Under the pieces are notes generated by a model. The model was not told the DNA's origin. It did no database searches and saw only the letters and a list, made by a program, of their open reading frames with translations. A stretch of DNA of 64,000 nucleotides from Candidatus Parcubacteria bacterium (lineage in GTDB: Bacteria > Patescibacteriota > Minisyncoccia > Phycocordibacterales > UBA2100), in the NCBI GenBank assembly GCA_041168925.1, contig JBEEJY010000010.1, forward strand, positions 12,430-76,429. Reading direction: 5' to 3'. Below, in pieces: positions 49,978 to 59,180 of the stretch (positions are counted from its first letter, which is position 1; each line of letters starts with the position of its first letter). The translations under genes and the position numbers were made by a program.

Positions 49978-51249
49978 ATGAAGTACAACCTCCATACGCT
50001 CAAAAACGGTCTGCGCATCGTGCTCGCGCCGATGCCGGGCAATAAGACAGCGACAGTCATCGTGATGTCGGGCACCGGCTCGCGCTATGAAGACGAGAAG
50101 GAGAATGGGCTCGCGCACTTCTTGGAGCACATGTTTTTCAAAGGCACCAAGAAACGGCCAAGCGCCAAGGCGATAAGCGAGGAGCTGGATGCCGTCGGTG
50201 CCGTTTACAACGCCTTCACCGCCAAGGAGCGCACCGCCTACTACGCCAAAGTCTCCGCCCGTTACCTCGATACCGCGCTCGACGTCATCTCCGATATCTT
50301 CGTCAATTCCCTCCTGCCGGAAAAAGAGATAACGAAAGAGCGCGGTGCCATCATCCAGGAGATAGATATGTATGAGGACATGCCGATGCGCACGGTTGAT
50401 AATGTATTCGACGAAATGCTCTTCGGCAAAGAGCATCCGCTCGGCCGCACCATCCTCGGGCCCAAAGAGAACATCCGCACCTTCACACGAAAAGATTTCG
50501 CCGCCTACCTCAAGCGCAACTACACGTCGCTCAATACAGTGGTCTGCATCGCCGGTTCTTTCGACGAAAAAAAGGTACTGGCGAAAATAACGAAAGATTT
50601 TGGCGGCTTGAAGCATGGCAACCCGCCCGATTTCATCCGCTTCGCTCCCGAGCAGGACAAGCCGCGGGTCATGATAAAAGAAAAGCAAACGGACCAGACG
50701 CACTTCATGCTCGGCGTCCCGGCCTTCCCCTACCTCCACAAAGACGAATTCGCCCTCGCGGTGCTCTCGGCCATCCTCGGCTCTGGCATGTCGAGCCGCC
50801 TTTTTCTCGAAGTGCGCGAGAAGCGCGGGCTCGCATACTCCGTCCACTCATGGGTGGAGCGCTATCCTGATACCGGAACTTTCGTCGTCCAGGCAGGTGT
50901 CGAGCATGCGAAGCTGGAGCAGACGGTGAAGACTATCCTTGGTGAGTTCAAGAAAATTAAGAGGACGAAAGTATCGGCGGCAGAGCTCGCGAAGGCGAAG
51001 CAATTCATCAAAGGCACGATGACGCTCTCGCTCGAGACGAGTGATGAGATAGCGCAGCACGCAGCGAGCGCTATGATAAATATCGGCCGTGTACGCCCGC
51101 TCGAAGAAATCATCAAAGGCATCGACGGCGTCACCGCCGCCGAAGTCCAACGCGTCGCCCGCGACCTTCTCCAGACCAACCGCCTCAACCTCGCCATCAT
51201 CGGCCCGCATATCTCGAAAGCCAGTCTTGTTTCTCTACTGAAAGTCTAA
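49978..51249 (+). CDS. M16-family zinc peptidase (insulinase-like)
   Basis: Inverted zincin motif HFLEHMFFKGT plus a downstream E; two-lobed M16 architecture. Confidence 0.85.
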   Translation: MKYNLHTLKNGLRIVLAPMPGNKTATVIVMSGTGSRYEDEKENGLAHFLEHMFFKGTKKRPSAKAISEELDAVGAVYNAFTAKERTAYYAKVSARYLDTALDVISDIFVNSLLPEKEITKERGAIIQEIDMYEDMPMRTVDNVFDEMLFGKEHPLGRTILGPKENIRTFTRKDFAAYLKRNYTSLNTVVCIAGSFDEKKVLAKITKDFGGLKHGNPPDFIRFAPEQDKPRVMIKEKQTDQTHFMLGVPAFPYLHKDEFALAVLSAILGSGMSSRLFLEVREKRGLAYSVHSWVERYPDTGTFVVQAGVEHAKLEQTVKTILGEFKKIKRTKVSAAELAKAKQFIKGTMTLSLETSDEIAQHAASAMINIGRVRPLEEIIKGIDGVTAAEVQRVARDLLQTNRLNLAIIGPHISKASLVSLLKV

Positions 51250-51313
51250 ACCTCTTCAGATTCTTCCGAGAGATTTTTTTAGGATGCCGGCTATGCACAG
51301 AGTTCGCTCCGGC

Positions 51314-51357
51314 GAGGTACACTAAATGTATGCTATAGCATATATTTAGTGTACCTC
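51314..51357. repeat. 44-bp AT-rich near-perfect palindrome GAGGTACACTAAATGTATGCTATAGCATATATTTAGTGTACCTC (TACACT-N8-GCTATAGC-N8-AGTGTA core)
   Basis: Lies between the convergent M16 peptidase and ung genes. Shares the core architecture with two elements flanking the PaaX-like gene. Confidence 0.6.
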
Positions 51358-51410
51358 TCTTGCGCGCGAATCTGCCCTTCTTACCTCATGACGAACACTC
51401 TTACTCTCAG

Positions 51411-52091
51411 CTACAACCAGTCAATCGGCTCTTTCTCGTACTTTTTTAAATATTCGTTGGCGCGGCTGAACGGCTTGGAGCCGAAAAAGCCGCTGAAGGC
51501 GGAAAAGGGCGAGGGGTGCGCGGATTCGATGACGCAATGCTTCTCGCGGTCGATGTACGCGCCTTTCTGCTTGGCGTAGTTGCCCCATAAGATGAAGACG
51601 AGATTTCCTTTTTCTTCCGACAACGCGCGGATGACGGCGTCGGTAAATTTTTCCCATCCCTTCCCCTGATGCGAGCCCGCGGTTCGAGCCTTCACTGTAA
51701 GCGTTGCATTCAATAAGAGCACTCCCTGTTTCGCCCAGCGTTCTAAATCCCCCGTCCGATGAACTAATTTCTGACCGAGATCGCTCTCGATCTCTTTAAA
51801 AATATTCTGGAGCGAGGGCGGCAACGCGACACCTTCGCCGACAGCAAAGCAAAGCCCATTGGCCTGTCCCGGCCCGTGGTACGGGTCTTGCCCCAAGATG
51901 ACGACCTCGACTTTGTCGAACGGGGTAAGCTCGAAGGCGCGAAAGATATTTTTCGGCGCAGGATACACGATCGCGTGCCGGTATTCCTCTTTGACGAATT
52001 TCCGGAGTTCGCTGAAATATTCCTGCCCGAATTCATCCTGCAGCACCTTCTTCCACGACGATTCTATCTTGACGTCCGTCTCGCCACTCAT
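51411..52091 (-). CDS. ung: uracil-DNA glycosylase, family 1
   Basis: GQDPYHGPGQANGLCF (water-activating loop) and C-terminal HPSPFS motifs. Confidence 0.9.
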   Translation of the reverse strand: MSGETDVKIESSWKKVLQDEFGQEYFSELRKFVKEEYRHAIVYPAPKNIFRAFELTPFDKVEVVILGQDPYHGPGQANGLCFAVGEGVALPPSLQNIFKEIESDLGQKLVHRTGDLERWAKQGVLLLNATLTVKARTAGSHQGKGWEKFTDAVIRALSEEKGNLVFILWGNYAKQKGAYIDREKHCVIESAHPSPFSAFSGFFGSKPFSRANEYLKKYEKEPIDWL

Positions 52092-52093
52092 GC

Positions 52094-53422
52094 TTACCAG
52101 ATCTCACTCGGAGCAACGTTGTTTGATTTGGTCGCGGAAAGAGGCATGCCGTCCTTGGTCGGTTTTTTCGGCCACTTGTCTATCACTTTCGTCTTCAAGC
52201 CGATGCGATTCAGCACTTTGATAAAAGGGTCGGGGTCGAGCTCTTCGGCATTGACCATGGTGTGTGGCGCCCAAATCCCCTTCGCGACGAGGATGGCGGC
52301 TGCGATGGGCGGTACGCCGGCGGTGTAGGAGATGGCCTGCGACTCGACTTCCCTGTAGCACTTGGCGTGGTCGCAGTTGTTGTAGATGAATACCTCGCGC
52401 CACTTCCCATTCTTCCACCCCTTCACGAGGTCGGCGATGCACGTCCAGCCCGTGTACGTCTTTGCGAGCGATGCCGGGTCGGGCAAAACGGCTTTCAGCA
52501 CTTTGAGCGGCACCACCTTGACCCCCTCGGCGGTCGTGACCGGCTTTTCGGAGAGCATGCCGAGATTGCGCAGCACACCAAAGACATTGAGATAGTGATC
52601 GCCGAAGCCCATCCAGAAGCGGATACTCTTGGCATCAATATTTTTCGAAAGTGAATGCAGTTCATCGTGGCCGTTGAGGTAGACCGGGCGCGAGCCGACG
52701 ACCGGGAAGGTGTAGTCCCACCGCTCGCTATGTACCGGGCGTACGACCCATTTGCGATTGATCCACGTCCACACTTTCTTGAACTCGCGGAAATTTATCT
52801 CCGGGTCGAAGTTGGTGGCGAAATATTTGCCATGGCTGCCGGCATTGACGTCGAGAATGTCTATCGTGTCTATCTTGTCGAAATAATTTTTCTTCGCAAG
52901 CGCCGCCCATACATTGACGACGCCCGGGTCGAAACCGATACCGAGGATGGCGTTGATGCCCGCTTTTTTACAAGCAGCCCGTTTCTTCCATTCATAATTC
53001 GCGTACCATGGCGGATCTTCTGCGACTTTGGTCGGATCTTCGTGGATGGCGGTGTCCATGTAGGTTACCGGGCGGCCGTTCACCTCTTTTGCACGGATAC
53101 ACGCCTCCAAGACCGACATATTGATGTAAGCCGTGCCGAGATTGATCACGATGGACGAATTCGTGTCCTTGATGAGTTTCGTCATCGCGGAAATGTTCAT
53201 CGCATCTATCTCTCGCGAGTAGAGCTTCGCATTCTTATCTTTCTTGCTCCCCTTGCGTTTGATGCTGGCGATGATGGCGTCGGCTTTGGCGCGCTTGCGC
53301 GAGGCGATGCAGATATCTCCGAGGACGTCGTTGTTTTGCGCCGCTTTGTGTGCGGCCACATGAGCGACGGCACCCGCGCCCACAATCAGTACGTTTGGTT
53401 TTGTGTTTTTCATGACCTGCAA
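52094..53422 (-). CDS. carboxynorspermidine synthase/dehydrogenase (saccharopine dehydrogenase family)
   Basis: Rossmann fold VLIVGAGAVAHVAAHKAA and a saccharopine dehydrogenase-like C-terminus; adjacent to the carboxynorspermidine decarboxylase gene. Confidence 0.75.
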   Translation of the reverse strand: MQVMKNTKPNVLIVGAGAVAHVAAHKAAQNNDVLGDICIASRKRAKADAIIASIKRKGSKKDKNAKLYSREIDAMNISAMTKLIKDTNSSIVINLGTAYINMSVLEACIRAKEVNGRPVTYMDTAIHEDPTKVAEDPPWYANYEWKKRAACKKAGINAILGIGFDPGVVNVWAALAKKNYFDKIDTIDILDVNAGSHGKYFATNFDPEINFREFKKVWTWINRKWVVRPVHSERWDYTFPVVGSRPVYLNGHDELHSLSKNIDAKSIRFWMGFGDHYLNVFGVLRNLGMLSEKPVTTAEGVKVVPLKVLKAVLPDPASLAKTYTGWTCIADLVKGWKNGKWREVFIYNNCDHAKCYREVESQAISYTAGVPPIAAAILVAKGIWAPHTMVNAEELDPDPFIKVLNRIGLKTKVIDKWPKKPTKDGMPLSATKSNNVAPSEIW

Positions 53423-53434
53423 ACTGTCGACCTT

Positions 53435-54592
53435 CTAACCGGTAACCGCTCCCAGGCTTCCCTCGAAATCATCGTAGGTAAATTCTCGTACGACGTCAAC
53501 AGCGCCGTCGAGCCGCTTCACGACTATCGAGGGCATCTGCACGCCGTTGAACCAGTTCATCTTCACCATGGTGTAGCGCGCCGCTTGATCGAACACGACA
53601 TAATCGCCGACTTTCAACGGCTCCGGGAGGTCATAGGTGCCCCATATGTCTCCCGCAAGACAGGTATTACCAGCGACCATGAAGCGATTCGGACCCGTCG
53701 CTTTCTCGGCGAGCGTCGCATCTTCGTGATAGACGAGATTATCGAGCATATGCGTCTCCACGGCCGCGTTTATGATGGCAATTTTGAGCTCGTTCTCGAC
53801 GATGTCTTGCACCTGCGTCACCAGAAATCCGGTGCCGAGCACCGACGCCTCGCCAGGCTCTAAGTAAACTTGTACGTCATAGTCGGTCGCGAATTTCTTC
53901 AGCCGGTCGCAGAATTTATCGAGCGGATAGCCTTCGTCGGTAAACGCGATACCGCCGCCGAGCGATACCCACTCCATTTTTTTAAGAAGCGGCCCGTATC
54001 TCTCCCCAATCGTATCGACGATTTTTGAAAACGCATTAAAATCCGTGTTCTCGCAATTTACGTGGAACATAAGCCCCTGTATCTTGTCTGCGACCTTCTC
54101 GATGGCCGCGATGTCCTTCACCCCAAGACGGCTCGCCTTGCGCGCCGGATCAGCGAGATCGAAGTGCGAGTGGCTCACGCCCGGATTGGCCCGCAACCCA
54201 AGATTCTTTCCTTTCACATCCGGATAAAACCGCTCCAGCTGCGAAACGGAATTGAAGATTATCTTGTCGGCAAAGGTTTTAAGCTCGTCTATGTCTTTTT
54301 GCGACCACGCGACGCTGTAGCCTTGCGTCTCGCCACCGAATTTCTCATGCCCCAGGCGCGCCTCGTAGAGCGCGCTCGAAGTAGTCCCGGCCATGTACTT
54401 GCTCATGAGTGGGAAAACAGACCACGTCGAGAAGCATTTGAGCGCTAAAACCGCTTTCGCGCCGCTTTTGTCCCGAACATATTTCATCTTTTCCATGTTC
54501 TTCAGGAGCCGCGCCTCATCGAGCAGATAGTATGGCGTCTGCAATTCCTTGTGCGCTTTCACAAAATCCCAAATCGATTCTTCTTTTGACAT
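53435..54592 (-). CDS. nspC: carboxynorspermidine/carboxyspermidine decarboxylase (PLP-dependent, fold type III)
   Basis: ODC/DapDC-like TIM barrel with a PLP lysine region (AVLALKCF) and a C-terminal beta domain; paired with the dehydrogenase upstream. Confidence 0.8.
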   Translation of the reverse strand: MSKEESIWDFVKAHKELQTPYYLLDEARLLKNMEKMKYVRDKSGAKAVLALKCFSTWSVFPLMSKYMAGTTSSALYEARLGHEKFGGETQGYSVAWSQKDIDELKTFADKIIFNSVSQLERFYPDVKGKNLGLRANPGVSHSHFDLADPARKASRLGVKDIAAIEKVADKIQGLMFHVNCENTDFNAFSKIVDTIGERYGPLLKKMEWVSLGGGIAFTDEGYPLDKFCDRLKKFATDYDVQVYLEPGEASVLGTGFLVTQVQDIVENELKIAIINAAVETHMLDNLVYHEDATLAEKATGPNRFMVAGNTCLAGDIWGTYDLPEPLKVGDYVVFDQAARYTMVKMNWFNGVQMPSIVVKRLDGAVDVVREFTYDDFEGSLGAVTG

Positions 54593-54676
54593 CGTTCGCA
54601 CTATATCACATAGTGTCTCGCAGTCCTGTTCCGGTTGGCCGGCAGGCGGACTAACACAAATTCTGACAGGTGTATC

Positions 54677-55183
54677 ATGCGAGCCTTGGAAACGGTCAAC
54701 CTGAAGGGGAGCACCGTGAGCGTATCGATCGGCGTGATTACCCCGGCGACGGACATTGCGATCTTCGGTGCGTGGGCTTATTTCCTGACCGCGTGGTCAT
54801 GGGGACGCGGCTATCCGGTTGGCTCCTTTGAGGAAATCGTTCGGATGCAATTCGCGATCACTGCGATGATCGAGGATGAGCCAATCGGCTTCGGCGGCAT
54901 CAACCTAACGGCCAATAACGACAACTCGAACGAGTTCGTGCAATGGTTCTCCGCATGGGTCGTTGCTCCGCAATTTCAACGGCGAGGTATCGGGAGAATT
55001 ATTCACCGACACTGCATCGATAGAGCGGTCGATCAACCCGGGCCCATTCGCGCAACTTCCGAATCGTTCCACATGCACCCATTCTTTATCAAAGAAGGAT
55101 GGGCGATCATCCAAGACAAGGAGACGGCCCGGAACGAAGCCGGAAAGCCGATGTACGTCTATGGTTTTTCCCGCGGCGAATAG
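54677..55183 (+). CDS. GNAT-family N-acetyltransferase
   Basis: Motif A VVAPQFQRRGIGRII. Start at MRALETV assumed. Confidence 0.7.
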   Translation: MRALETVNLKGSTVSVSIGVITPATDIAIFGAWAYFLTAWSWGRGYPVGSFEEIVRMQFAITAMIEDEPIGFGGINLTANNDNSNEFVQWFSAWVVAPQFQRRGIGRIIHRHCIDRAVDQPGPIRATSESFHMHPFFIKEGWAIIQDKETARNEAGKPMYVYGFSRGE

Positions 55184-55240
55184 CTGCCGCCGCTAGGGCA
55201 GCCTACAAACACGACCTCCGCGCGATGTGCGGAGGTCGAT

Positions 55241-56230
55241 TTATTTTTGGTGAGACTTGATCGCTCTCATGATTAGAAACTTCGATTCGTAGTGATACGG
55301 AGGATTCGCTTTCGAATATGATTCTCGCGGAATTCTGCTCCGCCAAAATCGCGTTGCATACCCCCGGAAAAGGCGGTTCAGCATTCTCTCTGCGGATTGG
55401 TTTGTATATGCTTTTTCGCCGGGAATGACGTAGGGTTTGCCATCGAATCGGTCCCGCTTGATGTCCGTGGCGAAATCGATGAGTGCTGTTCCATTAGGCT
55501 TGAGCACTCTGTCTATCTCGGAGGCAATGTGTTTGAGTGTGCGCAGAGGAAAGATGTGGAGAGTCCCCACGCAGAAGACGCCGTCCATAGAATTTGCCAC
55601 TATTGGAAATCGTCGAGCGACATCGAAGACTTTCGTTGTGAACTTTCTCTTGTACTTTCGCGATATATTGCGCAGCGACTTCTCAAGGGCGTTCGGATCG
55701 ATATCCGAAGCAATGAGTGAATTAACCGTCCTCAGAAGCAACGCATTGCACCTCCCGTCTCCAGCCGTTAGATGGAGCCACGCACCCTTCACTCGCAGCG
55801 TGTTAATAACCTCCACGGTCTTCGGATCCTCTAAACCCCAGATGGATCGTCTTCCTGTTTTGAGATAATCGATGTGCTCGATATGGTGGTGCAGTCTTTT
55901 CTTATGACGAGAATCTTCGGGTGTTGTATGTGATACTTCATCACTAATCTTGTTTAATCCACTGGCCGCGAAAGCGCCTTCTGATTTCAGCATCGCTTGT
56001 TTTCTGAGCGTGCCGCCTCTGTTGTAGCTCCCAAGCGAACCATCGGAGCGGATGACACGATGGCAAGGGATGCTCTCATCGTAATTGGTGAGCATGATGG
56101 CACCGACGGCGCGCGCGGCCTTCGGATTGCCCGCTCTTGCGGCGACTTCTTTGTAGGTCATTGACTTCCCTTTCGGGATTTTTCTCACCACATTTCGCAC
56201 TTTGTCTGCAAACGTCTTCATGCTCGTCAT
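55241..56230 (-). CDS. fusion protein: N-terminal MGMT-type DNA-binding domain (PCHRV active-site motif) + C-terminal class I SAM-dependent methyltransferase
   Basis: N-terminal 90 aa match the O6-alkylguanine-DNA alkyltransferase C-domain (TYKEVAARAGNPKAARAVG...IPCHRVI). The C-terminal region has the Rossmann motif I LHLTAGDGRCN and the post-II motif LKPNGTALIDF. Confidence 0.6.
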   Translation of the reverse strand: MTSMKTFADKVRNVVRKIPKGKSMTYKEVAARAGNPKAARAVGAIMLTNYDESIPCHRVIRSDGSLGSYNRGGTLRKQAMLKSEGAFAASGLNKISDEVSHTTPEDSRHKKRLHHHIEHIDYLKTGRRSIWGLEDPKTVEVINTLRVKGAWLHLTAGDGRCNALLLRTVNSLIASDIDPNALEKSLRNISRKYKRKFTTKVFDVARRFPIVANSMDGVFCVGTLHIFPLRTLKHIASEIDRVLKPNGTALIDFATDIKRDRFDGKPYVIPGEKAYTNQSAERMLNRLFRGYATRFWRSRIPRESYSKANPPYHYESKFLIMRAIKSHQK

Positions 56231-56266
56231 TCTAACATAATCGCATGCGTATGCGTGAATTCGATG

Positions 56267-56302
56267 TATACTATATCTTTGCTATAGCATAGTTTTAGTA
56301 TA
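56267..56302. repeat. 36-bp AT-rich palindromic element TATACT-N8-GCTATAGC-N8-AGTATA overlapping the start codon of the PaaX-like gene (divergent promoter region)
   Basis: Part of an about 45-bp direct repeat with the element at 56888..56923. Confidence 0.6.
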
Positions 56303-56871
56303 TGGGAGAAATTGAACGGAGGGGAAAATTAAGGAGGCGAAGGAGGAACATTAAGAATGCCCTGCTGACGGCGATTCAACTTGCGGCAGTTGTCGGTGTC
56401 GCCGTCGCTGCGCCGAATCTGCCGCAAGCCCTTTATAAGACAGGTCTACTGAAGATACGCGGGGATGGCGCGGTTATAAGTCGCTCACGAAGAAACTTGT
56501 TGAGGCGACGTCTACTAAAAGAAGAAAAGGGATTTCTCGTATTGACACGCGCTGGGCAAAGAGAACTGCTTCGGATTGAGCTCGGTGAACGGCGATTGAA
56601 ATCTTTTCGATGGGATGGACGATGGCGTGTACTTATCTTTGATATCCCAGAATACAGAAAGAAAGACCGAGAGAAATTGCGTCGCACGCTCCGGAGCGTC
56701 GGATTCGAGCATTTACAGGACAGCGTCTGGATCTATCCTTATGACTGCGAAGATTTTGTGGCTCTTTTGAAGGCAGATTTCAAAATTGGGAAGGACATGC
56801 TGTATATGATTGTGGAGGAACTCGAGGGAGATTCGACGCTCCGGAAGCAATTCAACCTTCGAAACCGCTAG
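56302..56871 (+). CDS. PaaX-like transcriptional regulator (wHTH + PaaX_C/Cas2-like C-terminal domain)
   Basis: C-terminal WDGRWRVLIFDIPEYRKKDREKLRRTLRSVGFEHLQDSVWIYP matches the PaaX C-domain pattern; the N-terminal half is helix-rich. Flanked on both sides by the palindromic element. Confidence 0.5.
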   Translation: MGEIERRGKLRRRRRNIKNALLTAIQLAAVVGVAVAAPNLPQALYKTGLLKIRGDGAVISRSRRNLLRRRLLKEEKGFLVLTRAGQRELLRIELGERRLKSFRWDGRWRVLIFDIPEYRKKDREKLRRTLRSVGFEHLQDSVWIYPYDCEDFVALLKADFKIGKDMLYMIVEELEGDSTLRKQFNLRNR

Positions 56872-56887
56872 CAGTATCGATTCCGAT

Positions 56888-56923
56888 GTATACTGATTTC
56901 ATGCTATAGCATGGAGTTAGTAT
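56888..56923. repeat. 36-bp AT-rich palindromic element TATACT-N8-GCTATAGC-N8-AGTATA downstream of the PaaX-like gene (between convergent genes)
   Basis: Same architecture as the elements at 56267..56302 and 51314..51357. Confidence 0.6.
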
Positions 56924-56956
56924 ACTGGGCGAGTCGGAACCGATGCCGTGAGATGA

Positions 56957-57769
56957 TCAGATACCGAGGGTCCCGGTGGATTTTGGATCGTTTCTCTTTC
57001 CATGAGCGGAGTGGAGCTGCAGCTCCTTACCTGCCGTCTCGCGGTAACGGCAGTATTCGCACTCCTCTTTTTTATCCGGCACGGAGTCGCTTTTTAAGCA
57101 GTGCGCGAGCCGCTCTATCAGCGGCTCGATCCAGTCCGTGTCGCCTTTGTGGGAAATCACTCTGACGTCGAACTCGAGCTTGCCGTCGAACGAGGGCGCA
57201 TCGCTGTTTCCGTTGACGTAGACGAAATATGCGGTCGGCGAAACTTTTTCTCCGATGCCGCGCAAGAGCCATTGGTAGATCTCTACCTGTCGTTTGTATC
57301 CTTGCTGCCAGTATCCTTCGATCGTAACCTCCTCTTTTTTCGAGGTCGCTTTGTAGTCGACGACATGCAACTGACCATCGGGTGTTACCCACACGTCGTC
57401 GAGTCCGCCCCGGAAAATAAATCCGGTTTGGCGGTGATGAAATTGTACGCCGCGGCGAAACGCGTCGCGCCACTCATCCAGCCGATCGTCTTTGAGCGGT
57501 ATGGCATCGATCTTGTACGCTTTCATGAGCGGATGCGCCTCCCCTTTGGCGCGGTGAATGTCGAATTCCCGTTTTAAGAGTTCATCGACGGCGTTGTTGA
57601 GGGAAAACGCCGGAAAAGACGGCCGAGCGATCCCAAGTCGCACGTCGAGGTAAAAACACCTCGGACATTCGTGAAAAAGATCGATTTTCGAGCGGCTTAT
57701 GCGAAACGGCTCCGGCGAACTCGGATCGTAAAGGTTACGGGTCCGTTTGGCGTAGAGCTTGGGAGGCAT
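56957..57769 (-). CDS. Cas4-like/RecB-family PD-(D/E)xK nuclease with Cys cluster (DUF83-type), not CRISPR-associated here
   Basis: N-terminal Cys (HECPRCFY), the D-x-K motif in VVDYKATSKK, QxxxY (QVEIYQWLL), and a C-terminal C-x12-C-x2-C (CLKSDSVPDKKEECEYC). Confidence 0.6.
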   Translation of the reverse strand: MPPKLYAKRTRNLYDPSSPEPFRISRSKIDLFHECPRCFYLDVRLGIARPSFPAFSLNNAVDELLKREFDIHRAKGEAHPLMKAYKIDAIPLKDDRLDEWRDAFRRGVQFHHRQTGFIFRGGLDDVWVTPDGQLHVVDYKATSKKEEVTIEGYWQQGYKRQVEIYQWLLRGIGEKVSPTAYFVYVNGNSDAPSFDGKLEFDVRVISHKGDTDWIEPLIERLAHCLKSDSVPDKKEECEYCRYRETAGKELQLHSAHGKRNDPKSTGTLGI

Positions 57770-57789
57770 TCCGCGAGTATAGCACTCGC

Positions 57790-58296
57790 CTAACTCATCG
57801 CACCTGGTGCGGTGTCGTGATTTTCATGGTGTTCGGTAAACCAGTGTTTGAAACGATTCTCCAGGTACCACATGCCGGTAAACATGATCAGGGAGAGAAT
57901 GGTGGAAAATACCGCGACCGCGTACATCCCGAAGCCGGCGGCCATGCCGATGGCGCTCACGATCCATAAGCCCGCCGCGGTCGTGATGCCGTGCGGCACG
58001 TCGCCGCGAAAGATGATGACTCCCGCGCCGATGAAACCGATACCGGTCGCCACCCCTGCTGCAAGCTGAAGCGGCTGGATGTTGACGATCCCAAGGTATG
58101 CCGAATCGACATAGTTGGAAATGAGAATGAAAAGACATGCGGCGAGCGCGACGAGGCCGAAGGTGCGCGTGCCGGCCGCTTGTTTGGCGAGAATGGCGCG
58201 CTCGGTACCGATGCATGCGCCAAGGGCCATGGCAAGCAAGAGCTTGCCGAACATGACGACTGTCGGGTCGATAAATTCAGCCGGCGTAGGTTGCAT
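57790..58296 (-). CDS. mgtC: MgtC/SapB-family membrane protein
   Basis: Four to five TM helices with the MgtC signature (ALGACIGTERAILAKQAAGTRTFGLVAL). Confidence 0.75.
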   Translation of the reverse strand: MQPTPAEFIDPTVVMFGKLLLAMALGACIGTERAILAKQAAGTRTFGLVALAACLFILISNYVDSAYLGIVNIQPLQLAAGVATGIGFIGAGVIIFRGDVPHGITTAAGLWIVSAIGMAAGFGMYAVAVFSTILSLIMFTGMWYLENRFKHWFTEHHENHDTAPGAMS

Positions 58297-58313
58297 ATGA
58301 GTCGACTATACCA

Positions 58314-59180
58314 TCAAATACCGCACAACTGTTTGGCTTCATCGAGAACATGGGGAATTTTATCGGGGCGTATGCCGAATTCCTTGAGCATATGCGGGGT
58401 CGTGACGCTTTTGCACAGCACGATGCGCCGGTCGAGGAAACGATGCTTCTCGCCATCGGAAAGCGTCGTGAGACAGGTAAGCGGATGCACCTTCCCCGCT
58501 TCGATCATATGGAAGAGGCCGCGATCGTGCGGATAATCCCAGCCGAGCAACGTAAGCCCCGAACACTGCGCGTAGCGGATCGCATTCCGAGTAAAGCGAG
58601 TGTTGGTCGCCAGCCATCCTTCATCGATACGCATCGATGCTTGTGGCGCCGCGTGGAGATCTTCGTAGCGCGCGCACACGTAGAGCGCATCTTTGATGTC
58701 GGTTTTGCCGGACGCATCATTGTGAAATTTTGCTTCGATGCCGACGCGTTTGCCGCCGCGCTCCGCGACCACGTCCACCTCGTGCGGCGCGCATCTGCCC
58801 GTGAGTGCAACGCCGGTGCGCACGTGCCAGCCCTGGGCGCGCAGCACTTCGGCGAGAAATTGCTCAAAAGGAAATCCCGAGGGGCCCAATGCGAAAACGG
58901 CGCGCTTGATCGAGTAGCGCGCGGCGACGGGCGTGACGTCCTCGCGCCTCAGTATCTCGAAGGCGCGCCGGTATATATCTTCGGTGTACATTCCCGGACG
59001 AAGTTCGCGCATCATGTGCGCGAGAATCTTCGCGCGTGCCGTCGAGGAGGCACCCGCTAGCTCGAGCGAATGCATGAGCTTGCCGGGATCAAACGGCTCT
59101 TGCTCGCCGTCGGCTTTGGTAATGACAAACTCGCGGCTCTGTCGCGTCGATGGCTGCGGACGTGAGGCTATCGTTGTCAT
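58314..59180 (-). CDS. ATP-cone domain fused to an Mrr-like restriction endonuclease (PD-(D/E)xK) domain
   Basis: The N-terminal region (FVITKADGEQEPFDPGKLMHSLELAG...KILAHMMREL...DIYRRAFEILRR) matches the ATP-cone as in NrdR. The C-terminal HEVDVVAERGGKRVGIEAKF carries the D..E.K catalytic motif of Mrr_cat. Confidence 0.6.
   Translation of the reverse strand: MTTIASRPQPSTRQSREFVITKADGEQEPFDPGKLMHSLELAGASSTARAKILAHMMRELRPGMYTEDIYRRAFEILRREDVTPVAARYSIKRAVFALGPSGFPFEQFLAEVLRAQGWHVRTGVALTGRCAPHEVDVVAERGGKRVGIEAKFHNDASGKTDIKDALYVCARYEDLHAAPQASMRIDEGWLATNTRFTRNAIRYAQCSGLTLLGWDYPHDRGLFHMIEAGKVHPLTCLTTLSDGEKHRFLDRRIVLCKSVTTPHMLKEFGIRPDKIPHVLDEAKQLCGI

Follow-up and report, generated by a model that had tools for sequence, protein, structure and literature searches.

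In Escherichia coli, the regulator PaaX represses its own promoter Px by occlusion, and its operator has the form TGATTC-N27-GAATCA (PMC9493321). The present work deals with a shorter PaaX-like protein of 189 residues, named mini-PaaX because it lacks the C-terminal effector domain of PaaX, and with the AT-rich 36-bp palindromes that border its gene (positions 56302-56871, + strand) in a stretch of 64 kb from a Candidatus Parcubacteria genome, called the window throughout. Judging from sequence comparison, the best explanation, and in our opinion a probable one, is that mini-PaaX is autoregulated and that its 36-bp composite site doubles as a leaderless promoter. Autoregulated small helix-turn-helix repressors with a long inverted-repeat operator on their own promoter are found in two other systems, HrcA with CIRCE and the C-proteins of restriction-modification systems with their C-boxes; in a study of C-proteins, covariation between protein and site was reportedly used in the same systematic way. 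The mini-PaaX site is likewise predictable from the conserved linkage of gene and site, whereas CIRCE marks a heat-shock regulon and C-boxes mark restriction-modification operons, mini-PaaX has no conserved targets, a copy of its site follows its stop codon, and the folds differ. No description of the mini-PaaX/palindrome system was found in a search of the published literature.

The likeness to PaaX resides first in the protein. In both, a winged helix-turn-helix (wHTH) is followed by a Cas2-like central dimerisation domain (PaaX_M; Foldseek match 8a39), but PaaX counts about 305-316 residues and possesses a C-terminal ligand-binding (phenylacetyl-CoA) domain which is missing from mini-PaaX. 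In the Pfam scan, PaaX_M (PF20803) matched residues 103-175 with an E value of 2e-20 and 73.1 bits for a cut-off of 24; there was no match to the Pfam PaaX N-terminal model and none to PaaX_C, the protein stopping at residue 189. The PaaX-like identity proposed in the initial annotation is to be qualified in that, of the Pfam models of PaaX, only the central Cas2-like one is matched and the C-terminal domain is missing. The PaaX equivalog of NCBIfam (TIGR02277) scored 28.7 bits, far under its cut-off of 264.55, and the cas2 model (TIGR01573) 22.7 bits, just under its cut-off of 24.5. In the AlphaFold2 model (predicted local distance difference test, pLDDT, of 76.5), a basic N-terminal arm and a long helix precede the winged helix (helix 40-47, recognition helix 55-68, beta-hairpin wing 72-81), which is followed by a Cas2-like ferredoxin-fold domain (residues 108-183). 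The top structures retrieved by Foldseek were E. coli W PaaX (8a39), Mycobacterium tuberculosis Rv0674 (3kfw, to which the profile match spans residues 54-147), VapD and Cas2, the last two with a probability up to 0.99 and E values of 0.02-0.4. In Cas1-Cas2 complexes, the Cas2 dimer extends along the DNA duplex. Mini-PaaX differs from Cas2 and VapD in being fused to a wHTH and in having no cas1 gene, CRISPR array or antitoxin around it, and a nuclease activity is putative.

The search for homologues returned 1744 mini-PaaX proteins at E ≤ 1e-5, and the family is confined to Patescibacteria. The 120 homologues listed have lengths of 158-197 residues, nearly all between 185 and 197; an identical protein is recorded for a MAG (metagenome-assembled genome) named "Candidatus Parcubacteria bacterium", and the closest relative (P0002) is 83% identical. 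Among 27 aligned members, the residues M1, G2 and E5 never vary (MGxxE) and the Cas2-like half is much better conserved than the wHTH half, with the motifs WDGRWR-L-FD-PE, GF--LQ-S-W, D-E and LLKA---GKD. PADLOC gave only weak Cas2 matches, and a defence system was rejected. A phage origin of the protein was rejected since no homologue was present in the viral contigs searched and no PHROG match was obtained; no plasmid-borne homologue was found either.

The window was scanned with the pattern TATACT-N8-GCTATAGC-N8-AGTATA, up to three mismatches being accepted. Three matches were obtained where 0.00 were expected from 100 shuffles, which excludes a chance origin. The 5' copy, E1 (56267-56302), is TATACT-ATATCTTT-GCTATAGC-ATAGTTTT-AGTATA (full 36-mer TATACTATATCTTTGCTATAGCATAGTTTTAGTATA) and the 3' copy, E2 (56889-56924), is TATACT-GATTTCAT-GCTATAGC-ATGGAGTT-AGTATA (full 36-mer TATACTGATTTCATGCTATAGCATGGAGTTAGTATA), with 622 bp from start to start. 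The arms are complementary at 15 of 18 positions in E1 and at 16 of 19 in E2. When the flanks CGATG...TGGG are included, the two copies form 45-bp direct repeats (56262-56306 and 56884-56928) identical at 34 of the 45 positions. The final base of E1 is the A of the mini-PaaX ATG at 56302, and 36 nt separate E1 from the start of a divergent gene for a fusion of an MGMT domain with an S-adenosylmethionine (SAM)-methyltransferase (329 residues; 55241-56230, - strand). E2 begins 17 nt past the mini-PaaX stop codon, between convergent gene ends, and ends 32 nt short of the stop of a gene for a Cas4-like PD-(D/E)XK nuclease (56957-57769, - strand). The third copy, E3 (core 51318-51353), has the outer hexamers TACACT...AGTGTA, is a near-perfect palindrome of 40-44 bp (51314-51357) and lies between the convergent genes of an M16 peptidase and a uracil-DNA glycosylase. 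The three elements are the top AT-rich palindromes of the entire window. A match to 10 bp of the core at 2090-2099 sits within the ychF coding sequence and was set aside as chance.

The two palindromes, the direct repeats of about 45 bp on either side of the gene and the overlap of the 5' copy with the start codon were therefore recovered as the initial annotation had described them. Its statement that each copy is a palindrome built on the 12-bp core ATGCTATAGCAT is right for the palindromy but not for the core, which is exact in copies 2 and 3 only, copy 1 reading TTGCTATAGCAT. In the same way, the elements are low-GC outliers (22%, 31% and 25% for the 36-mers), and the surroundings, given there as 60% GC, stand at 56.7% for the whole window.

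The genome-wide search for the pattern that had been proposed there was carried out on one genome per species. The exact motif occurred at 81 loci, of which 79 belong to metagenome-assembled genomes (MAGs) of Patescibacteria labelled Kaiser-, Taylor-, Niyogi-, Nomura- and Zambryskibacteria, Paceibacterota and, for some, "Saccharibacteria"; the other two, in Streptococcus and Shewanella, are probably chance matches. Several MAGs contribute multiple loci, with seven or eight copies at the most. A mini-PaaX homologue stands directly beside the motif, its ATG overlapping the palindrome end, in about 22 loci, and about 17 of these have a 3' copy just past the stop codon. It is the only recurrent neighbour family, the 168 flanking proteins falling into 132 clusters. 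As these loci had been selected through the element, a second and unbiased set of 80 metagenome loci was picked by the mini-PaaX protein alone. A palindrome score of at least 7 was reached in 52% of their 5' windows and 61% of their 3' windows, for 3-8% of background windows. Regulator and elements thus travel together across a phylum-level group.

In the protein-chosen loci the architecture of the palindrome is constant, its arms are AT-rich and its sequence is lineage-specific. Across lineages, the outer hexamers include TACACT, TATACT, TACGTT, TACATT, TACCCT, TGTACC and TACACC, and the centres include GCTATAGC, GCGGTCGC, CCGATCGG and CACGTG. The position of the palindrome relative to the ATG is kept to the base among proteins merely 42-60% identical; a minority of lineages have instead a perfect palindrome as their 5' copy, 27-64 nt upstream of the ATG.

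To relate protein and site, 59 non-redundant proteins were each paired with their best flanking palindrome, and mutual information was calculated between all variable columns and the half-site positions. The three strongest pairs (z of about 11) involve residues 57 and 61, and residue 58 comes next. These residues occupy the first two turns of the predicted recognition helix, and their partners are positions 2-5 in the outer hexamer. Every protein with R61 (40 of 40) has a C at hexamer position 5, where those lacking it mostly have T, and E57 goes with AC at positions 2-3 in 35 of 36 cases. D57 is associated with GT (TGTACC type) and S, T or A57 with the TATACT type, while I or V58 is associated with A and F or Y58 with G or C. 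The next-strongest signals come from the Cas2-like domain: D140 accompanies a TATA centre (47/50), H, N, K or G140 a GGTC, GACC or GATC centre (8/9), and residue 124, in a basic helix, co-varies with the base two positions outside the GC core. Contrasts between nearest relatives agree in 15 of 19 cases for R61 and in 7 of 9 for D140, so that the signal reflects more than one clade. The hexamer variant is uniform within sampled genomes; both Taylorbacteria MAGs have TATACT at all loci and proteins with S or T at residue 57.

The linkage of gene and palindrome, the enrichment around protein-chosen genes and the helix-hexamer covariation together indicate that the 36-bp palindrome is very probably the binding site of mini-PaaX itself. 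It was also considered that the palindrome could be a generic repeat, of the kind of a miniature inverted-repeat transposable element (MITE), brought beside the regulator by chance or hitch-hiking, the regulator binding something else. The presence of the element at many unrelated intergenic loci is what speaks for it; such an observation had been named in the initial annotation as one that would refute the operator, and it was made, but binding is left unrefuted because the dispersed copies carry the hexamer variant of their own genome. A hitch-hiking repeat is moreover at odds with the base-exact position relative to the ATG among such distant proteins, with the association in loci picked by protein alone and with the covariation between element and recognition helix. 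We regard it as effectively refuted and give it almost no probability.

Judging from these comparisons, a mini-PaaX homodimer would span the whole 36-bp element, the two winged helices reading the outer hexamers TAYACT and AGTRTA, 24 bp apart, and the Cas2-like dimer sitting on the GC-TATA-GC centre. The predicted mini-PaaX site resembles the PaaX operator in its layout of paired 6-bp inverted repeats with more than two helical turns between them. The two differ in sequence and in spacer, the predicted mini-PaaX site having 24 bp (TAYACT-N24-AGTRTA) and that of PaaX 27 bp, and in the centre, which is conserved in the mini-PaaX site and co-varies with the Cas2-like domain. The predicted mini-PaaX sites also border the gene on either side and occur dispersed between other genes, and no paa genes are nearby. 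What appears new relative to the PaaX theme is the truncation of the protein, the apparent reading of the operator centre by a Cas2-like domain, the self-flanking sites and the scattered sites without a regulon.

The promoter was analyzed in 33 homologous 5' copies whose end overlaps the ATG. At positions 24-29 of the 36-mer, these copies present a -10-like hexamer (T24 in 29, A25 in 30 and T29 in 26 of the 33) of consensus TATAAT, and the A of the ATG, position 36, is fixed 7 nt past it. In E1, this hexamer is TAGTTT (56290-56295, + strand), in the gene-proximal arm. The proximal arm of the 5' copies matches TATAAT at 4.15 of 6 positions on average and contains TAnnnT in 76% of cases, against 2.94 of 6 and 30% for the distal arm (Wilcoxon p=8e-6); the arms of 3' copies reach only 2.6-2.7 of 6 and 23-28%. 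A -35 box would be expected where the left hexamer is, 17 bp upstream of the -10 box; this hexamer has only 3/6 matches to TTGACA. As a Shine-Dalgarno sequence would find no space next to the overlapping ATG and conservation of the N-terminus begins at M1, the mini-PaaX mRNA is probably leaderless.

These data suggest that the 5' copy is an autoregulated leaderless promoter. Transcription would start at or beside the A of the ATG, which closes the palindrome, and the bound protein would occlude the -10 box and thereby repress its own gene, as known for PaaX at Px. The MGMT-methyltransferase gene would probably be affected as well and is a possible co-regulated target, since its start is only 36 nt from E1 and its promoter must overlap E1 or lie in the same 71-bp intergenic region. 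The operator proposed for the dimeric wHTH regulator in the initial annotation is therefore well supported by linkage, covariation and a PaaX-like layout, but a plain operator does not account for everything, notably not for the 3' and dispersed copies.

Three sets of side observations concern site specificity and promoter use. At L112:859-898, L147:663-698 and L108:6866-6903, elements of the same architecture have an outer hexamer unlike that of the gene-flanking copies of those loci, and locus L069 (353-730) also encodes a distant mini-PaaX paralogue with 27% identity; some genomes may hold two protein/site specificities. In Niyogibacteria JACOYI01 (L024:7005-7913, + strand), the ATG of a 302-residue protein (MG...) that is not a mini-PaaX and has no Pfam match is formed by a palindrome end, and other genes may at times use the element as a leaderless promoter. 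On contig CAYGHQ010000006.1 (L048/L058), the element occurs in inverted orientation at both contig ends, and CAYGHQ010000085.1 (L070) contains an 836-bp perfect inverted duplication in which two mini-PaaX genes stand head to head; at these palindromes, the assembly seems to break off or to produce fold-back artefacts. Apart from L070, possibly an assembly artefact, no MAG showed more than one mini-PaaX gene among the loci retrieved.

Dispersed copies are essentially always intergenic, and the loci retrieved gave roughly 5-8, and up to about 10, exact copies for each MAG. A rough estimate from the flanks gives about 1 copy per 40-50 kb, or about 10-20 per genome when diverged copies are included. 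Counting all copies, 14 lie between divergent genes. Where a dispersed copy is in neither a convergent nor a divergent interval, the genes on its two sides run in the same direction, and the upstream stop is usually nearer to it than the downstream start. The genes beside dispersed copies have housekeeping functions and are unrelated to one another (PNPase, tRNA synthetases, MurB, Ddl, DnaJ, L19, trigger factor).

Several of these data do not fit easily with an autoregulatory operator and weigh against it. In most loci a copy follows the stop codon, mostly between convergent genes where there is no promoter to control, and about 17 of the roughly 60 dispersed copies are likewise between convergent genes, a proportion of about a quarter which makes them unlike ordinary promoter operators. 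There is no conserved regulon: in Pfam scans of 42 genes that have the element upstream and 61 that have it downstream, only the regulator recurs. The middles of the arms vary among copies of one genome and are degenerate in 5' copies, so they are not needed for recognition, and the two arms of one copy nevertheless stay complementary (0.85, against 0.47 with shuffled partners and a maximum of 0.54 in 1000 shuffles). Many copies are perfect over 36-60 bp, their palindromy extending into copy-specific flanks. In the window, E3 carries TACACT whereas the gene-flanking E1 and E2 carry TATACT. The Cas2-like domain is conserved beyond the need of dimerisation and holds most of the 34 invariant columns, many of them acidic. 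Finally, the covariation is partly confounded by phylogeny, though the nearest-relative contrasts argue against an effect of a single clade.

Under the autoregulatory explanation, the 3' and dispersed copies would be further sites of the same protein, the dispersed set turning over fast without forming a conserved regulon. The 3' copy would most likely aid autoregulation by looping or block read-through from or into the convergent neighbour. For both kinds of copies, looping, a roadblock or insulator function, or a spread comparable to that of repetitive extragenic palindromes (REP) are possible roles.

An architectural or roadblock role of these copies was weighed as an alternative for them alone, which is compatible with autoregulation at the 5' copy. 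In this case, the dimer, tightly bound, would stop read-through transcription whatever its orientation, or would be an anchor organising the chromosome. Such a role agrees with the strictly intergenic location, with convergent regions not being depleted, with the proximity to the upstream stop in tandem contexts, with the symmetry of the site, for which orientation is irrelevant, with 3' copies that are not -10-like and with the lack of a conserved regulon. It agrees less with the ordinary intrinsic terminators that the genome has, for example at 55212-55238, and with the 14 copies between divergent genes, near which there is no 3' end. We consider it unlikely.

The strong palindromy may also be read as that of protein-independent RNA hairpins acting as terminators, stabilisers or processing signals. 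Indeed, the + strand RNAs of E2 and E3 fold strongly (-24.9 kcal/mol, z -5.7, and -32 kcal/mol, z -9), all three mismatches of E2 are G-U on the sense strand, and many copies are just past stop codons. On the gene strand of 63 3' copies, however, G-U-type and A-C-type mismatches are equal (33 vs 33), and on this basis a role as RNA hairpin was rejected. An intrinsic terminator was rejected as well: the terminator scan did not call the elements, whose AT-rich stems are followed by no U-tract (T-tract in the DNA). The Rfam search of 50000-58500 returned only a sub-threshold match of a miRNA model on E3 and no known RNA family. The 5' copies, moreover, overlap the predicted transcription start, so that at most one arm would be transcribed, and protein-DNA covariation is unexpected for an RNA element independent of protein. 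This explanation is accordingly very improbable. With mismatches in equal numbers, no U-tract and no Rfam family, the constraint that keeps the arms complementary acts on the DNA and not on RNA. Candidate causes are template-switch correction of quasi-palindromes, a need for cruciform or hairpin DNA, or the birth of the copies as perfect palindromes. Integron attC sites, DNA uptake sequences and parS-like sites were set aside, the copies being single, in tens and not thousands, and never within genes. As a separate observation, L007:2686-3076 and L012:1785-2173 of Candidatus Taylorbacteria MHRX01 have in common about 400 nt of non-coding sequence (77-84% identity) with a palindrome and a terminator-like hairpin, no convincing ORF and no Rfam match; this could be a structured RNA not yet described, or else an intergenic module that was duplicated.

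The arrangement of gene and copies also recalls REP and their RAYT transposases, in which a single-copy gene is flanked by short palindromes that are also dispersed between genes, often past gene 3' ends, with a sequence specific to the genome or lineage. In a selfish module of this type, or similar to an insertion sequence, the wHTH-Cas2-like protein would bind the palindromes and create, spread or maintain them by a Cas2-like nuclease activity. The Cas2-fold domain over the centre would nick or resolve a hairpin or cruciform, giving new perfect palindromes whose arms are kept complementary. The gene with its two copies would be the master locus, and the dispersed copies its non-autonomous progeny or junction-like abutted ends. 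Here too, a gene in single copy is bordered by a palindrome that recurs between other genes whatever their orientation, which is the hallmark of REP-RAYT systems, and the neighbouring genes are unrelated. Dispersed copies are more perfect palindromes than gene-flanking ones, and the Cas2/VapD signature is strongly kept, with FDIPE and LQDSVW invariant and many invariant acidic residues. Insertion sequences typically have, in their left end, a promoter that their own protein represses, and the predicted promoter within the left end of the cassette, presumably repressed by its own product, resembles it.

On the other side, mini-PaaX contains no HUH/Y1 transposase, DDE or serine/tyrosine recombinase domain; no transposase domain was found by Pfam, and the only matches in Pfam, NCBIfam and PADLOC were PaaX_M and a weak Cas2. 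Its palindromes differ from REP in being symmetric, often perfect and AT-rich, and in numbering tens and not hundreds, the count of exact copies per MAG being modest; no REPIN doublets were seen. An all-against-all BLAST of ±400 bp around the copies revealed common sequence over about 50-60 bp only, with two exceptions, and a longer repeat unit or MITE body was rejected on this result. A search with both flanks of each copy gave no pairs of filled and empty sites for dispersed copies, and direct repeats common to the flanks did not come to notice, no systematic scan for target-site duplications having been made there. Viral and plasmid-borne homologues, as said above, were not found.

The initial annotation had proposed, as the other possibility, that the elements bound a small mobile cassette carrying the regulator. 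In Kaiserbacteria, MAG locus L062 is collinear with the window over 6 kb (M16 peptidases 73% identical), but its MGMT and PD-(D/E)XK genes are adjacent, with a small membrane ORF between them in place of the cassette. The mini-PaaX gene of this genome is on another contig (L065), again flanked by both copies. From these different placements, gene and elements move or are lost together; the presence of the PD-(D/E)XK gene without the cassette in L062 puts this gene outside the module. In one genome (Kaiserbacteria VGJQ01), a 155-bp partial duplicate with 84.5% identity (L053:7546-7685 and L050:4049-4202) comprises the palindrome, about 50 nt upstream of it and the first ~22 codons of mini-PaaX, the second locus being without the rest; it likewise favours a spreading module. 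Conversely, five genomes with a nucleotide identity of about 70% all keep the cassette in its place beside ligA. An element also lies right after the M16 gene in both the window (E3) and L062, with arms that differ while each copy is self-complementary, which suggests retention and not turnover. Where an asymmetric centre makes their orientation readable, the 5' and 3' copies form direct repeats in some lineages and inverted repeats in others. A mobile cassette is thus favoured by the comparison of window and L062, disfavoured by the ligA site, the mixed orientation and the lack of target-site duplications or empty sites found, and weakly supported at best. That the pair of mini-PaaX and palindrome is self-propagating or self-maintaining, as an analogue of REP-RAYT run by a wHTH-Cas2-like protein, appears to us unlikely, and autoregulation remains the explanation that we prefer.

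Two differences between these collinear regions are recorded apart. Between the post-M16 element and the MGMT gene, the window (51354-56266, compared with L062:6934-7211) has about 4.6 kb of additional sequence with genes for a uracil-DNA glycosylase, a GNAT protein and two enzymes of polyamine-synthesis type (52094-54601; candidate carboxynorspermidine dehydrogenase and decarboxylase). The MGMT domain, fused to the SAM-methyltransferase domain in the window (329 residues), is a stand-alone protein of 84 residues in L062.

Patescibacteria, or Candidate Phyla Radiation (CPR), are a large share of bacterial diversity, are mostly uncultured and have a gene regulation that is almost unknown. The mini-PaaX family is widespread in the Paceibacterota sampled, and a candidate binding motif can be read directly from the sequence. 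From the covariation a small recognition code emerges, in which R61 corresponds to C/G, E/D/S57 to hexamer positions 2-3 and D140 to the TATA centre; synthetic protein and DNA would suffice to test it in vitro, so that no culture is needed, and a Cas2-like fold may contribute to sequence-specific reading of DNA. The architecture of the presumably leaderless and self-repressed promoter is kept with base precision. As for the other copies, their behaviour may be the sign of a genome-structuring or selfish element of a new kind in reduced genomes; should self-propagation be true, it would represent a new class of domesticated mobile-element machinery and give the Cas2 fold a sequence-specific DNA role outside CRISPR.

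Concerning the gene neighbourhood, no paa catabolic genes are next to mini-PaaX in the window, and its neighbours in other loci are LigA, RecJ, PheT and MsrB. No CRISPR array and no tRNA were detected in the 64 kb, and neither cas1 nor an antitoxin was present among the neighbours. Further neighbours in the window are MgtC, an Mrr-like protein, GNAT and the polyamine genes. At 55212-55238, between the convergent GNAT and MGMT-methyltransferase genes, is a canonical GC-rich bidirectional intrinsic terminator, which shows that the genome employs ordinary terminators beside the AT-rich palindromes. Genes of DNA metabolism recur near the elements or the regulator: in the window, those of uracil-DNA glycosylase (51411-52091), the MGMT fusion, the Cas4-like PD-(D/E)XK protein and the Mrr-like protein (58314-59180), and in other loci (L018, L023 and others) LigA, RecJ, DprA (twice), UvrC and RmuC. 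This excess is weak, roughly two-fold as judged by eye. The Mrr-like protein (- strand, 288 residues) combines an N-terminal ATP-cone with an Mrr-type restriction endonuclease domain, an unusual fusion which is possibly a nucleotide-sensing nuclease.

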